A stretch of DNA of 64,000 nt from the NCBI GenBank assembly GCA_049322615.1, contig JBMORX010000009.1, positions 57,120 through 121,119 on the forward strand. Reading direction: 5' to 3'. Shown here one piece after another: positions 1-20,826 of this stretch. A program made the translations under genes and the position numbers. The notes under the pieces were generated by a model. The model had not been told where the DNA came from, ran no database searches, and saw only the letters and a program-made list of their open reading frames with translations. This DNA comes from Patescibacteria group bacterium (GTDB taxonomy: Bacteria > Patescibacteriota > Microgenomatia > CAYGWK01). Numbering within the stretch: the first letter of the stretch is position 1; the number at the start of each line of letters is the position of its first letter.

Positions 1-245
1 GCCAGAGCCATGGGTAGGTTCGGCATAACAACCGCTAAAGTGAGAAAACTCCCCGCAGCCAGAAGATAAAGAATCTCTTTGACATATGGATAACGTTCGT
101 TAAGCCTCTGGAGTTTTTTCTCAAGTGAGTCTTTGTCCTGTTGGAAAATTTTTGCTGCTTTCTCCCAATCTACTTTGGAAAAATCTTCTTTCGCTTCTGA
201 TGACTTTGCCTTCTTAATTTTCCTTATTATCTTAATTTTCTTCAC
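1..245 (-). CDS. partial ORF running off the left edge (hypothetical, hydrophobic C-terminal region; GTG start near 245)
   Basis: open minus-strand frame from ~245 to the window edge; absent from the ORF track because it is incomplete. Confidence 0.25.
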   Translation of the reverse strand, partial: MKKIKIIRKIKKAKSSEAKEDFSKVDWEKAAKIFQQDKDSLEKKLQRLNERYPYVKEILYLLAAGSFLTLAVVMPNLPMAL

Positions 246-5843: not shown

Positions 5844-6563
5844 TTACCTTAAGGCATTTATAAAATTAAAAAAAATCTGTTTTCTTGGTCCGTGAGAAAC
5901 GGAGAAACCTTGTCTTATTGCCAAAAAAATATCTACCCCTCGTTTTTCTAACTCTTCCCTTCTACTCTCTAAAATTTTTCTGGCTTTCTCTGGTGAAATT
6001 TCTGGATGGAACTGGATTCCCCACACAGGGTTAGTGGAGTAACGGAACGCTTGTACCTCGCAAAGCGGAGATTGTGCTAGATTTATTGCATTTTTTGGAA
6101 GAAGTGTAACCTGATCTTTATGGTATTGAAACGACCAAAATTCATCAGGCATGTTAGAGAAAAGTGGGTCAGCTTTACCATTGCTATTAAGAACAATTTT
6201 TGACCATCCTATCTCCGAATTTTCGGCTGACAACTTAACCTCACCACCTAGGATATGTGCTAAAAGTTGATGCCCTAGGCAGATCCCTAATACTGCTTTG
6301 TCTTTGGCTATCATATCGGCTATAAAATCAGCTTCTTTTTTAAGATAGTCATATTGTGGTAAGTGCATTTCGTACACACCCATCGACCCACCACTTATAA
6401 TTACCGCCTCAAAGTCAGAATTCGAAGGCACTTCTTCGCCAAGATGTACTCTTGAAATTTCCCCTCTTCCTCCGGCTGGTTTAATTAGCTCTTTTATGCC
6501 TTCTGCGCGTCTTTCAGCATTCTCAATAATTAGAGTTCGTATTTGCTCTTTCATAAGTTCCAA
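5844..6563 (-). CDS. class I glutamine amidotransferase-like protein (peptidase C26 / gamma-glutamyl hydrolase-like)
   Basis: GICLGHQLL catalytic Cys motif; stand-alone 239-aa GATase1. Confidence 0.75.
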   Translation of the reverse strand: MELMKEQIRTLIIENAERRAEGIKELIKPAGGRGEISRVHLGEEVPSNSDFEAVIISGGSMGVYEMHLPQYDYLKKEADFIADMIAKDKAVLGICLGHQLLAHILGGEVKLSAENSEIGWSKIVLNSNGKADPLFSNMPDEFWSFQYHKDQVTLLPKNAINLAQSPLCEVQAFRYSTNPVWGIQFHPEISPEKARKILESRREELEKRGVDIFLAIRQGFSVSHGPRKQIFFNFINALR

Positions 6564-16366: not shown

Positions 16367-16550
16367 AAGGCTATTATATACTAAAAACCTCCCTTTTAGG
16401 GAGATTCTTTTTGCGTTTTTGCGGTCCTAAAAATGCCAAAACCAACCTCCCCTTGGGCTTAAAGTGTCCTAAAGAAAAATGACACTTTGTCGGGGTTGGT
16501 TGGTCTTCGCATTGGAAATTATTATAGCAGACTATTTGAGCCTGTCAAGA
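16367..16550 (-). promoter_or_regulatory. pheST promoter plus leader-peptide transcription attenuator
   Basis: on the minus strand: TTGACA, 16 nt, TATAAT; leaderless ORF; long hairpin with FFF codons in its loop; a second hairpin CTCCCTAAAAGGGAG followed by TTTTT just before pheS. Confidence 0.7.
16459..16512 (-). CDS. Phe-rich leader peptide MRRPTNPDKVSFFFRTL (pheM-like)
   Basis: 17 codons plus stop, three consecutive Phe codons TTT TTC TTT, sits inside the attenuator. Confidence 0.6.
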   Translation of the reverse strand: MRRPTNPDKVSFFFRTL

Positions 16551-16629: not shown

Positions 16630-17286
16630 GTGGTGCAGTATTATCATCTTTATAACCGCGGTGTAGACAAACGGGTTATTTTTCTTGACGATACTGATAG
16701 ACAGCGATTTCTTGATGCTGTTAGGTTAGCAAGACTTTCGAATTCGCCCAGGCTTTCTTGGTTAAAAAGACAAATTAAAATTGGTAACATTTCTCCAACA
16801 CACCTTGAAAAATTGGAAGAAAAATATGGACCACCTCTTTTAGATATCGTTACCTACTCTCTAATGCCTAATCACTTCCACTTTCAAGTTAAGGAACTGA
16901 TAGAAGATGGAGTGAGTCAGTTTTTTCGAAAACTGGGAACAAGCTATGTAATGTATTTTAATATTAAACACGAAAGAACAGGACGATTGTTTGAATCCCA
17001 ATATAGGTCTGTGTTAATAGGAACTGACGAGCAATTAATTCACCTTTCTCGTTATATCCATACCAATCCTTACAATTCTTCCAAGAGAGACATTTCTCTT
17101 GAACAACTAAAAACTTATTCTTGGACGAGTCTCCCTGATTATCTAGGTACTCGTAAGCAGCCATTTTGTGACCCTACGGAAGTTATGTCATTTTTTAACT
17201 CACCTGAAGATTATTGGGAATTTTTAAAGGGAAATATTGATAAAGAAGAAGTTTTGCCCCCCGAGCTACTACTCGATCCAGGATAG
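16630..17286 (+). mobile_element. IS200/IS605-type HUH Y1 transposase, REP-associated (RayT-like)
   Basis: HUH motif LMPNHFHF and a downstream Tyr (RYIHTNPY); 218 aa; REP-A copies on both sides. Confidence 0.8.
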
Positions 17287-18397: not shown

Positions 18398-18421
18398 CTT
18401 GTTTTTTAAATAATATCAGAG

Positions 18422-20158
18422 TTAAATCTTTTTTTCAATCTCCAAAGTAATTTTACCTAGGAATTTCTCCAGCATCATTTTCCCAAGATCTTTTTCGCCT
18501 CGAGCCCGAACAGAGATATTTTTCGCTTTCACCTCTTTTTCGCCAACAATTACCATGTACGGTACTTTTTGAAGCTCAGCATCACGAATTTTTGCCGAAG
18601 TTGTCTCATTTCGGTTATCCAACTCAACTCTTTCTCCAGCCTCCTTGAGTTTATCAGCAATTTCTTGTCCATATTTTATTTGTTTATCGGTAATGGGAAT
18701 AACCACCACTTGAACTGGTGCAAGCCAAATCGGAAAAGCCCCAGCGTAGTGCTCAATCAAAAGTCCCACCCATCTCTCTAGGGAACCAAGAGGAGCACGA
18801 TGAATTAAAACTGGTCTTTTAGTTTTACCGTCTTTATCAATATACTCAAGTTTAAATCTTTCTGGAAGCATAAAGTCAACCTGGATTGTTCCGCACTGCC
18901 ACTCCCGTCCCAAGACGTCTTTTATCATGACGTCAAGTTTTGGTCCATAGAAAGCGGCTTCGCCTTCTGCTTTTTTGGGTGTTAATCCGGCTTTCTTAAG
19001 CGCCTCTTCAATTTTTATCTCCGCCTCTTCCCAGGTTTTATCGTCTCCAAGGTATTTATCTTTATTTTTTGGGTCTCTGACGGAGAAGCGAAGATAAAAG
19101 TCTCCAATCCTGAATGCCTTAAGGAGAAACATGGTGTAATCAATTACGCCGATGAACTCCTCTACCACCTGGTCCTCCCGACAAAAGATATGGGAATCAT
19201 CTTGGGTAATGTAGCGAACCCTAATCATCCCTGATAATTCTCCAGTTTGTTCATAGCGGTAAACAGTGGCATTTTCGGCAATTCGCAATGGCAAATCCCG
19301 GTAGCTTCGAAGCTCGCTTTTATAAATCATCATATGCATTGGGCAGTTCATTGGTTTAATAAGATAATCTTCTTTATCAATCTTCATTGGTGAGTACATT
19401 TTGTCCTGGTATAAATCCCAATGACCTGAAGTAACCCAAAGAGATTTTCTCCCAATATGGGGAGAATAAACATGTTGGTATCCCCTTTTTGCCTGTTCAT
19501 CAACAATAAACTTTTCAATTTCTCGCCTGATGATTGCTCCCCTAGGAGTCCAAATTAAAAGACCAGGTCCGACCTCGTCGGGGATAATAAACAAGCCTAA
19601 TTCTTTACCTAGTTTTCGATGGTCCCTTTTTTTTGCTTCCTCAAGTTGCCAAAGATATTGGTCTAACTCTTTCTGGGTCTCAAAACAAGTCCCATAAATT
19701 CGGGTTAACATCTTATTTTTTTCCTCCCCTCGCCAGTAGGCGCCGGCCAAAGACAAAAGTTTAAGGGGGCCAATTTTTCCAGTGTTAGAAACATGAGGTC
19801 CAGCGCAAAGGTCGAGAAAATCACCAGTCTCATAGAGACTGACCTGTTTACTGTCTTCTTTTTCTAGTTCATTGATTAATTCCAGCTTATAAGGCTGATT
19901 CTTAAAAAGTTTTCTCGCTTCGGAAATCGAAATCATTCTCTTTTTGAATGGGACTCTTGATACAGCGATATGTACCATTGCATCAACGATTTTCTCTAAA
20001 TCTTTTTCCGTAATTGGTTTTTCAAAATCGAAATCATAGTAGAAACCATCCTCAATTGCCGGGCCAATGCCTAGTTTTGTCCCAGGATAAAGTTTAAGAA
20101 CCGCCGCCGCCAAAACATGGCTTGCCGAATGACGCATGGTTTCTAGGTTTTTATTCAT
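18422..20158 (-). CDS. thrS: threonine--tRNA ligase
   Basis: class II ThrRS blocks (RDHRKLGKELGLF, catalytic core, anticodon-binding domain). Start moved to ATG 20158 (MNKNLET), which leaves room for the leader. Confidence 0.88.
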   Translation of the reverse strand: MNKNLETMRHSASHVLAAAVLKLYPGTKLGIGPAIEDGFYYDFDFEKPITEKDLEKIVDAMVHIAVSRVPFKKRMISISEARKLFKNQPYKLELINELEKEDSKQVSLYETGDFLDLCAGPHVSNTGKIGPLKLLSLAGAYWRGEEKNKMLTRIYGTCFETQKELDQYLWQLEEAKKRDHRKLGKELGLFIIPDEVGPGLLIWTPRGAIIRREIEKFIVDEQAKRGYQHVYSPHIGRKSLWVTSGHWDLYQDKMYSPMKIDKEDYLIKPMNCPMHMMIYKSELRSYRDLPLRIAENATVYRYEQTGELSGMIRVRYITQDDSHIFCREDQVVEEFIGVIDYTMFLLKAFRIGDFYLRFSVRDPKNKDKYLGDDKTWEEAEIKIEEALKKAGLTPKKAEGEAAFYGPKLDVMIKDVLGREWQCGTIQVDFMLPERFKLEYIDKDGKTKRPVLIHRAPLGSLERWVGLLIEHYAGAFPIWLAPVQVVVIPITDKQIKYGQEIADKLKEAGERVELDNRNETTSAKIRDAELQKVPYMVIVGEKEVKAKNISVRARGEKDLGKMMLEKFLGKITLEIEKKI

Positions 20159-20335
20159 GGTTTGATTATAGCACCAATAACAATTAAAAAACCAACCTTT
20201 CGGCTGGTTGTCGATTAGTTTTAACCCCACTAACAAACCAGCCGTTTTAGACGCTGGTAGTTGTAGTTACAGTTAAAACCGCAATCATTATTTTGAATTA
20301 TACTAATAAAAATTTTATTGTCAAGTGGATGGCAT
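20159..20335 (-). promoter_or_regulatory. thrS promoter plus leader-peptide transcription attenuator
   Basis: minus strand: TTGACA, 16 nt, TATAAT. Hairpin ACCAGC/GCTGGT versus a perfect 8-bp alternative GGCTGGTT/AACCAGCC versus a terminator CAACC..GGTTG followed by TTTTTT. Confidence 0.7.
20247..20288 (-). CDS. Thr-rich leader peptide MIAVLTVTTTTSV
   Basis: 5 Thr codons among 13; the ORF ends inside the first attenuator hairpin. Confidence 0.6.
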   Translation of the reverse strand: MIAVLTVTTTTSV

Positions 20336-20379
20336 AGGACTCGAACCTATGACCTTTTCGATGTCAACGAAGCGCTCTT
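20326..20379 (-). pseudogene. tRNA 3' fragment (anticodon arm GAC, T arm, acceptor 3' strand plus CCA); 3' half of a tRNA split by an insertion
   Basis: T arm ATAGG-TTCGAGT-CCTAT, anticodon loop TTGACAT, no matching 5' acceptor strand adjacent. Confidence 0.6.
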
Positions 20380-20508
20380 CACCCGACTAACTTTTGCAGG
20401 TTGATTTTAGAAAGCCCAATTTAAACAAATAAAAATTTGTTGTTTTAGAGCTTCTTCTTAATTAACTCATTGGCAAAAGTTTGACGGGTAAACCAACTGA
20501 GCTCTTAG

Positions 20509-20582
20509 TGGGCGCATCAGGACTTGAACCTGAGACCTTTACTATGTCAAAGTAACGCTCTAGCCACCTGAGCTATGCGCCC
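20509..20582 (-). tRNA. tRNA-Val(GAC), no CCA encoded
   Basis: manual cloverleaf: acceptor GGGCGCA/TGCGCCC, anticodon loop TTGACAT, T loop TTCAAGT. Confidence 0.85.
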
Positions 20583-20826
20583 AGTAATTCTTTAAGACCT
20601 TTTTTAAATGAGTTCTCCCCCAGCCTGTTTTAAAATATTTTTCTCTGCTAGTTGCGTCTTGTTGATTTAAATACGCTTCGTAATAAATTAATCTAAATGG
20701 TTTTCTATATTTTGTTATTGCAACCTCACCAGAATTATGTTCTTCAAATCTTCGTTTTAGATTATCCGTATAACCTACGTACAATTTTCTATCTTTCAAA
20801 CTTTCTAGTACATAGACATGATACAT
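20560..20826 (-). CDS. GIY-YIG domain protein (small URI-type nuclease); its 3' end overlaps tRNA-Val
   Basis: YVYVLES...KLYVGYTDNLKRRFEEHN... GIY-YIG block; 88 aa. Confidence 0.8.
   Translation of the reverse strand: MYHVYVLESLKDRKLYVGYTDNLKRRFEEHNSGEVAITKYRKPFRLIYYEAYLNQQDATSREKYFKTGWGRTHLKKVLKNYWAHSSGG

Follow-up and report, generated by a model that had tools for sequence, protein, structure and literature searches.

The gene thrS, encoding threonine--tRNA ligase (ThrRS; 578 amino acids), lies on the minus strand of a 64,000-nucleotide stretch of contig JBMORX010000009.1 from a Patescibacteria group bacterium; this whole stretch is called the window here. In gene order, thrS is followed by infC, rpmI, and rplT, then by an inserted plus-strand open reading frame (ORF), and then by pheS and pheT. 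Between the remnant of a tRNA-Val(GAC) gene and the thrS start codon lies the compact element that is the subject of this report: a promoter (P1), a short threonine-rich ORF, a set of alternative RNA hairpins ending in an intrinsic terminator, and a second promoter-like box (P2). An earlier description, made from the letters of the window alone (the sequence-only reading), had proposed a Thr-rich leader peptide with a three-hairpin attenuator at this place. The element is as described there, to which we add the strand: all of its parts are on the minus strand, inside 20159..20335 (Table 1).

The strong promoter named in that reading agrees with the consensus at all 12 positions, with TTGACA at 20324..20319, a 16-nt spacer, and TATAAT at 20302..20297. 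There are only two such 12/12 matches in 5.5 kb, the second of which precedes the pheS leader. Eight nucleotides after the P1 -10 box, an ATG (20288..20286) opens the leader ORF, whose codons are ATG ATT GCG GTT TTA ACT GTA ACT ACA ACT ACC AGC GTC TAA. The ORF is as rich in threonine as had been stated, with Thr at 5 of its 13 codons (20273..20271 and 20267..20256), four of them being codons 8 to 11. The label "leaderless" is also reasonable, given the distance of 8 nt between the -10 box and the ATG and the recurrence of this layout at several genes of the genome; judging from these positions, the 5' untranslated region of the ORF would be absent or 1 to 2 nt long. When both strands of the whole window were searched for small ORFs combining an amino acid run, a downstream terminator, and a strong upstream -10 box, only two were found, namely, the thrS leader with its Thr run and the pheS leader with a Phe run (MRRPTNPDKVSFFFRTL), each matching its synthetase. 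In both of them, the distance from TATAAT to the ATG is exactly 8 nt.

From the ATG to the T-tract, the leader RNA measures only about 100 nt, and four of its regions can form three mutually exclusive helices (1:2, 2:3, and 3:4). The first hairpin of the sequence-only reading holds: ACCAGC (20258..20253, codons 11 and 12) pairs with GCTGGT (20242..20237), the stop codon is in the loop, and the pairing extends over nearly the whole ORF. The first 8 nt of region 2, GGCTGGTT (20243..20236), double as the 5' arm of the antiterminator and are, as had been noted, the exact reverse complement of AACCAGCC in region 3 (20209..20202); region 2 also holds an inner hairpin, UUAGU/ACUAA. The terminator proposed earlier is real, but the CAACC/GGTTG pairing in which it had been drawn is a weaker alternative, the better structure being AACCAGCC-GAAA-GGTTGGTT, which has 8 bp with one G-U pair and a T run that reaches 20186. 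Its placement immediately before the thrS start was wrong, since the T-tract ends 27 nt before the ATG (20158).

The folding energies are -25.7 kcal/mol for 1:2, about -18 kcal/mol for 2:3 (-18.2 or -18.8), and -11.7 kcal/mol for 3:4, and this order is the textbook hierarchy of an attenuator. In folds made at the decision points (leader positions 43..88 and 43..103), with region 1 thus removed, the minimum free energy (MFE) structure of the RNA is the antiterminator, both up to region 3 (-18.2) and up to the T-tract (-18.8). The fold of the leader has a z score of -4.43, and none of 200 shuffled sequences folds as well. The 24-nt sequence of the terminator is unique in the window.

The spacing of the parts also fits the scheme. 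Counted from the A of the leader ATG, Thr codons 8 to 11 occupy nt 22 to 33, the core of region 1 nt 31 to 36, the stop codon nt 40 to 42, and the antiterminator arm of region 2 nt 46 to 53; region 2 thus starts 3 nt past the stop. The footprint of a ribosome reaches ~12 to 13 nt past its A site; a ribosome stalled on the Thr run would therefore hide region 1 and leave region 2 free, and one at the stop codon would hide region 2. In all ten Thr-leader loci described below, the stop codon lies 0 to 5 nt before region 2, as the classical model requires.

Table 1. Positions in the window of the parts of the thrS element, of thrS and the tRNA-Val sequences, and of the corresponding pheS element
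Feature	Position	Strand	Basis and remarks
Promoter P1 (predicted), TTGACA-16 nt-TATAAT	20297..20324	-	12/12 consensus match
Leader ORF, MIAVLTVTTTTSV + TAA	20247..20288	-	Sequence; homologous ORFs; Thr-run statistics
Region 1, 5' arm of 1:2 (core ACCAGC, 20258..20253)	20253..20286	-	MFE folds
Region 2, 3' arm of 1:2	20213..20243	-	Folds; GGCTGGTTT invariant in 4 homologs
Region 3, AACCAGCC	20202..20209	-	Pairs with region 2 (antiterminator) or region 4 (terminator)
Region 4, GGTTGGTT + T-tract	20186..20197	-	Terminator scan, fold
P2 (predicted), extended -10 box TGcTATAAT	20165..20173	-	Sequence; 6 nt before thrS ATG; not in the sequence-only reading
thrS, threonine--tRNA ligase, 578 aa	18422..20158	-	TIGR00418, E = 1e-217
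tRNA-Val(GAC), intact	20508..20582	-	ARAGORN; Rfam tRNA, 66.8 bits
tRNA-Val(GAC), degenerate remnant	20326..20384	-	Rfam tRNA, 24.9 bits, E = 0.0066 (gathering score, 29); missed by ARAGORN
pheS attenuator (predicted)	16370..16548	-	12/12 promoter at 16548..16521; leader MRRPTNPDKVSFFFRTL from 16512

For comparison, thrS loci (designated by L numbers) were obtained from exact-protein look-ups plus one metagenome scan. ThrRS of the window is 100% identical to a protein from a MAG labelled "Patescibacteria group bacterium"; the closest relative in the protein collection is 75% identical, and the relatives carry the names Microgenomates, Woesebacteria, and Roizmanbacteria. The sequence-only reading had named a lack of leader-peptide conservation in relatives as an outcome that would speak against it; homologous cassettes were found before thrS in L094, L173, and L176. 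In L094, a tRNA-Val gene is followed by TTGACA, a -10 box, the leader MILVLTTTTTTSA, the ACCAGC/GCTGGT hairpin, an identical 24-nt terminator, and TTATAAT-N6-ATG. The leaders of L173 and L176 are MILSLTTTTITST and MKSGFLTITTSIN, respectively, and the TTGACA and -10 region of P1 are conserved in both L094 and L173. Among the homologs, the Thr codons vary synonymously (ACT, ACA, ACC, and ACG), the reading frame and the position of the stop codon are kept, and GGCTGGTTT/CCAGCC/GGTTGG is invariant across all four. The cassette DNA is 77%, 73%, and 90% identical, compared with 71%, 69%, and 82% for the thrS coding DNA of the same pairs; this argues for purifying selection on the cassette, whose similarity between genomes matches or exceeds that of the coding DNA of an essential gene.

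The lower part of the 1:2 helix is upheld by differing sequences, CACUACGA/UCGUAGUG in L094 and CCAUCACAA/UUGUGGUGG in L176. In the covariation check suggested earlier, RNAalifold returned the top of the 1:2 helix and the terminator for the four homologs, with only one compensatory pair, in an alignment (MAFFT) that misplaces a 3-nt indel in L176, so that its pair counts understate the conservation. The terminator 24-mer is identical in L094, differs by one change in L173, and occurs nowhere else among 178 loci. We considered whether the cassette could be a repeated mobile element and rejected this, the 24-mer being unique in the window and otherwise confined to these two loci.

Leaders that have no sequence similarity to that of the window but share its three-helix design also precede thrS in L099 (MKSILSNSTTTTTFE), L059 (MYIKNIITTTTTTTTSS), L126 (MLEKALFTTTTFSW), L133 (MIYSDIITTTIIL), and L138 (MKIVRCIITTTQFTA). 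The ThrRS proteins of these lineages are 49% to 62% identical to that of the window, and the one in L138 is identical to ThrRS of a Candidatus Roizmanbacteria genome. Each of these leaders has a promoter of the TTGACA/TTGAAA type with its -10 box 7 to 14 nt before the ATG, alternative arms of the form X/X'/X, and a T-tract terminator. With a simulated stalled ribosome, the antiterminator appears in L094, L099, L126, and L138. A weaker candidate is L172 (MFVYGFITTTFTTTP), where neither the terminator nor the promoter is clear. Overall, TTGACA or TTGAAA plus a -10 box is present upstream of the leader ATG in 8 of the 10 Thr-leader loci.

The Thr runs are far more frequent than chance would give. 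We counted ORFs of 6 to 40 codons starting with ATG and containing at least three consecutive Thr codons within 250 nt upstream of 61 unique thrS loci of the short (candidate phyla radiation [CPR]-like) type. Such runs were found at 9 loci, compared with 2 for the next amino acid (Leu) and 1 for the antisense strand, and 200 dinucleotide shuffles averaged 0.145, with no more than 2 in any of them. Runs of at least four were found for Thr at six loci and for every other amino acid at none. Thr is the sole amino acid enriched in such upstream ORFs across the 61 loci. A T-tract terminator is present at eight of the nine Thr-run loci. These nine are not all independent: three of them (window, L094, and L173) share a homologous leader, and the number of lineages is thus about seven. 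As a negative control, no Thr-run ORF was found at 98 long-type thrS loci (Bacteroidota, Firmicutes, and others), which came from a contig scan of the ThrRS alignment on universal motifs (AFYGPKLD and VRYITQDD), the matches listed being mostly from Bacteroidota and Firmicutes at 50% to 55% identity.

The parallel with pheST drawn in the sequence-only reading is borne out, the pheS leader with its FFF run being real and likewise conserved in relatives. After the leader, the pheS element has the CCAACCAACCCC/GGGGAGGTTGGTTTTGG pairing and the terminator CTCCCTAAAAGGGAG with a T-tract, followed by TATATAAT-N6-ATG. The corresponding leaders in relatives are MRKPTNPLRNFFSFF and MQMPTKTFRADKEALFFFA (L084/L085, at about 5990..6250; L087, at about 5850..6005), and no pheS leader is present in L089 to L091.

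P2 (an extended -10 box, 6 nt upstream of the thrS start codon) was not part of the earlier description. TATAAT-N6-ATG is also found at thrS in L094, L173, and L133, a full promoter (TTGACA-17-TACAAT) is present at the corresponding position in L126, and most Thr-leader loci retain a -10-like box near the ATG of thrS. The layout past the pheS attenuator is the same as at thrS, and relatives without leaders have a terminator plus TATAAT-N6-ATG before pheS (L089 to L091) and a -10 box 6 to 8 nt before the ATG of thrS. Across the window, a strong -10 box lies 5 to 9 nt upstream of 7 of the 49 predicted gene starts, compared with 2.7% of all ATGs, and Shine-Dalgarno (SD)-like motifs are found at 9 of the 49. 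This pattern implies that leaderless mRNAs would be frequent in this Microgenomates genome.

Taken together, it is highly probable that the element is a ribosome-mediated transcription attenuator in which translation of the leader peptide senses charged tRNA-Thr and sets how many transcripts of P1, as a strong and constitutive promoter, run on into thrS. From the anatomy and the comparison with relatives, we infer activity of P1, translation of the leader ORF as a leaderless mRNA, a functional terminator at the T-tract, and more read-through under Thr limitation. The polymerase would start at P1, the 5' end of the mRNA would lie at the leader AUG or 1 to 2 nt before it, and a 70S ribosome would load directly. 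With Thr-tRNA plentiful, the ribosome at the UAA would cover region 2, regions 3 and 4 would pair, and transcription would stop at the T-tract. With Thr-tRNA scarce, a ribosome stalled on codons 8 to 11 (ACU ACA ACU ACC) would mask region 1 and leave region 2 free, 2:3 would form before region 4 is made, no terminator would arise, and the polymerase would read into thrS. When the leader is not translated, for example, on RNA that extends from the tRNA gene lying upstream, the 1:2 helix with its high stability would form, followed by 3:4 and termination; because an untranslated leader would also terminate, the element would double as the terminator of tRNA-Val.

The read-through mRNA would need SD-independent internal initiation at thrS, because the thrS AUG, like most genes here, has no SD sequence. 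Given the promoter-like box between the terminator and thrS, attenuation probably modulates thrS expression rather than fully gating it: P2 probably gives a basal leaderless thrS transcript that bypasses the attenuator, which would itself contribute a further, inducible share of expression. No terminator was detected in the terminator scan between thrS and the downstream infC-rpmI-rplT genes, to which attenuator control probably extends as well.

Several observations weigh against attenuation as the control of thrS. Most of the closest relatives (L081 to L092, L174, L175, L177, and L178) are without the element, which is therefore dispensable. With P2, thrS could be expressed without passing the attenuator, and little would come from read-through transcripts if thrS could be translated from leaderless mRNA alone. 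When the leader of the window was folded at equilibrium over its full length, up to the thrS AUG, masking region 1 did not remove the terminator, so that the switch would rely on cotranscriptional kinetics. In addition, the homologs are few (four), their core stems are invariant and hence yield little strict covariation, and the independent Thr-leader lineages number about seven.

In one alternative reading, the hairpin and T-tract are merely the terminator of the tRNA-Val unit, thrS is transcribed leaderless from TGcTATAAT only, and the Thr ORF is incidental. The position of P2, 6 nt from the ATG, does match that of the -10 box at other leaderless genes, and comparable layouts are seen in relatives: in L084 to L086, a plain hairpin terminator follows tRNA-Val and precedes TAAAAT-ATG with no Thr ORF, and in L089 to L091, pheS has a terminator plus TATAAT-N6-ATG and no leader ORF. 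We regard this as improbable for the window, however, since it leaves unexplained the perfect P1 placed exactly 8 nt before the ORF, the frame and Thr codons conserved in the homologs, the specific enrichment of Thr in unrelated leaders, the copy in region 2 that is complementary to the terminator arm, and the Phe leader at pheS. The sign of the control could also be the opposite of the one proposed, read-through from P1 under Thr limitation occluding P2 and yielding an mRNA whose SD-less AUG is poorly translated, with the result that thrS output would fall or be buffered. The -10-like box close to the thrS ATG in most Thr-leader loci is consistent with such interference, and so are the many relatives in which thrS starts leaderless or nearly so, from a -10 box or after a tRNA, which suggests that initiation at the 5' terminus is normal. 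However, both an SD-like motif and a proximal -10 box are missing from the majority of the genes in the window, among them genes internal to operons such as pheT, and internal SD-independent initiation must therefore work. To our knowledge, moreover, a shortage of charged tRNA leads to higher expression under every characterised regulator of a synthetase gene (T-box and pheST attenuator). Promoter interference is thus also improbable, if anything slightly more so than a simple tRNA-Val terminator.

It is very improbable that the short P1 transcript or the 13-amino-acid product itself acts in trans, as a small RNA or a micropeptide, with control of thrS in cis being secondary. With a promoter and a terminator of its own, the cassette forms a complete transcription unit, and trans-acting small RNAs derived from attenuators are known, such as rnTrpL of Sinorhizobium (PMC6614838). 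Against this, the peptide outside the Thr run differs between lineages, the element has no second copy in the window and directly precedes thrS wherever it occurs, and no complementary target was found, although none was looked for. Finally, sensing could be performed not by a translating ribosome but by tRNA-Thr, as in a T-box, or by ThrRS binding to an operator that mimics the anticodon arm, as in Escherichia coli. The loop of the inner hairpin in the window, GGGGUUAAA, does contain GGU, a Thr anticodon, but this loop is not conserved (GAGCUAA in L094 and L173), no Rfam match was obtained even at an E value of up to 10, the leader is far shorter than a T-box, and the Thr codon runs would be left without an explanation; we consider such sensing to be extremely improbable. 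The attenuator that reads Thr-tRNA charging through translation of the leader ORF remains by far our preferred explanation.

The cassette is missing from most of the closest relatives, and in L081 to L083, L087 to L093, L104, L105, L174, L175, L177, and L178 (12 distinct relatives), tRNA-Val(GAC) ends 2 to 8 nt before the thrS ATG, with junctions such as ...gagcccaCCTATG, ...cgtccaCCATG, and ...gagcccaCTATG. L094, which has the cassette, and L087/L088, which do not, encode ThrRS proteins that are 95.8% identical, and their tRNA-Val genes differ at one base; L173 and L174/L175 likewise differ in having and lacking the cassette. From these comparisons, the cassette is a presence/absence polymorphism at a precise site between tRNA and ATG. 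No flanking direct repeats were seen in either comparison (L094 with L087/L088 and L173 with L174/L175). In L084 to L086, the 110 nt between tRNA-Val and thrS hold a single hairpin (ACCAGC-atctaaa-GCTGG + CTTTTT) followed by TAAAAT-t-ATG, with no Thr ORF; this hairpin, which resembles the top of the 1:2 helix of the window, is possibly a relic or a precursor of the attenuator.

We put forward only tentatively that the unit of ~160 nt, comprising a strong promoter, a leaderless Thr ORF, an attenuator, and a second leaderless promoter, is a self-contained regulatory module that lineages may acquire or lose as a whole, at a single site bordered by the 3' end of tRNA-Val(GAC) and the start codon of thrS. 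Where the module is absent, the tRNA end 2 to 8 nt before the AUG would make the thrS mRNA tRNA-punctuated and nearly leaderless. As a speculation, the cassette could have arisen by duplication of a terminator hairpin, given its two near-identical hairpins (ACCAGC...GCTGG and AACCAGCC...GGTTGG) and the single-hairpin state in L084. If this were true, a pair of loci with and without the cassette would offer a natural before-and-after view of the birth of an attenuator and would show the interchange of two routes to a leaderless mRNA, by promoter or by tRNA processing.

The tRNA itself shows further features. In the window, the tRNA-Val remnant keeps the anticodon arm, the T arm, and the 3' acceptor strand and has lost the 5' acceptor strand; its 3' end abuts the -35 box of P1, and the intact copy lies 125 nt further upstream. 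Alignment to the tRNA-Val of L094 indicates that the remnant corresponds to the intact tRNA-Val gene found before the cassette of L094 and L173, and it may still be an RNA processing signal. In L091 (...tccaCCATG), the encoded CCA would overlap the start codon. With processing of the tRNA 3' end, the thrS mRNA would be nearly leaderless, in a bacterial parallel to the tRNA punctuation of mitochondria; no description of tRNA-abutted leaderless mRNAs in bacteria was found in the literature searched, the coverage of which was incomplete, and this is absence of evidence only.

Pfam matches on the ThrRS of the window are confined to tRNA_SAD, tRNA-synt_2b, and HGTP_anticodon, the N-terminal TGS domain being absent. 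Short-type ThrRS without this domain is the form found in this clade, and all Thr-leader cases found belong to it. A TTG at 20236, which would give thrS an ORF of 604 amino acids, was considered as its start and rejected, since the homologs align from the ATG at 20158. A promoter-like site (TTGAAA, 17 nt, TG-TATTAT) at 18410..18438 on the minus strand lies within the 3' end of thrS and 12 nt upstream of the GTG start of infC, and recalls the internal infC promoters of E. coli. The inserted plus-strand ORF (16630..17286; 218 amino acids) breaks the otherwise conserved rplT-pheS junction and has a weak match, below the cut-off, to REP-associated tyrosine transposase (NF047646, E = 3e-6).

Patescibacteria (CPR) are uncultivated, have tiny genomes with most biosynthesis missing, and are almost uncharted with respect to gene regulation. 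The thrS element and its pheS twin suggest that at least the Microgenomates group monitors tRNA charging by leader-peptide attenuation. Very likely, the element belongs to a known mechanistic class that is so far undescribed for thrS in this phylum; in the literature searched, we found no description of leader peptides of thrS or other genes in Patescibacteria/CPR, the coverage being incomplete and the result an absence of evidence only. For annotation, the signature would be a Thr-run ORF, X/X'/X arms, and a T-tract. The element could also serve as a compact module for studying coupled transcription and leaderless translation, and its presence and absence among close relatives are a tractable case of attenuator gain and loss.

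The following features of the attenuator class are present at this locus: an ORF rich in cognate codons, an intrinsic terminator, an antiterminator sharing a strand with it, a 1:2 helix overlapping the ORF, the geometry of stall and stop sites, and conservation, which is patchy. The Rfam leader families, including Thr_leader (RF00506), gave no match, either in the whole window at the gathering threshold or in 20100..20620 at an E value of up to 10, and the same held for the T-box (RF00230), with only tRNAs being found for the leader. An operator of the E. coli thrS type would be a conserved hairpin resembling the anticodon arm of tRNA-Thr and lying beside the ribosome-binding site of thrS; no hairpin abuts the thrS AUG in the MFE fold, and the sole GGU loop is the one not conserved in L094 and L173. 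The element would work like the curated leader families but belongs to none of them.

Established control of thrS relies on a T-box in Firmicutes and, in E. coli, on an operator that mimics the anticodon arm. These systems act on the same gene to the same physiological end, raising ThrRS when the supply of charged tRNA-Thr falls or applying feedback through ThrRS itself, but their sensors are uncharged tRNA or ThrRS bound to the anticodon-arm mimic, and neither signature is present here. Beside them, the element would be a third independent solution to thrS control, built on leaderless translation. In arrangement, the element resembles pheST of E. coli (leader pheM), where an attenuator with a cognate-rich short ORF and alternative hairpins ending in an intrinsic terminator precedes a synthetase operon, in the same conserved thrS-infC-rpmI-rplT-pheST cluster; the window and its relatives also have a Phe leader. 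The E. coli attenuator senses Phe, however, and its ORF, pheM, is read from an mRNA that has both a leader and a ribosome-binding site, whereas the element described here would sense Thr, has its ORF 8 nt after a -10 box, and has a second -10 box past the terminator. Enterobacterial thrL (RF00506) is similar in that runs of Thr codons govern an intrinsic terminator through 1:2, 2:3, and 3:4 pairing. It mixes Ile with Thr, as do some CPR leaders (IITTTII in L133 and IITTT in L138), but it controls threonine biosynthesis genes in another phylum, and the present element does not match it in sequence or structure.

Leader peptides before synthetase genes have also been reported elsewhere. His leader peptides precede hisS paralogues in Bacillus (Naville and Gautheret 2010, PMC2965389); there, an attenuator replaces the usual T-box, and the spread is patchy, with apparent independent emergence or hopping, but the amino acid, gene, and phylum are different, and a leaderless arrangement was not reported (PMC2965389). 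The sequence-only reading had called a leader-type attenuator unusual for a synthetase gene, which is fair, although it is not unprecedented even for thrS: in Streptomyces lividans TK24, a leaderless thrL has been proposed upstream of thrS, among leaders of alaS, trpS, and leuS (PMC8079986). That thrL has two Thr codons among 18 and, according to the authors, no clear Rho-independent terminator (PMC8079986), whereas the elements described here have 4 to 8 Thr codons in the run, an unmistakable terminator and antiterminator, and comparative support.

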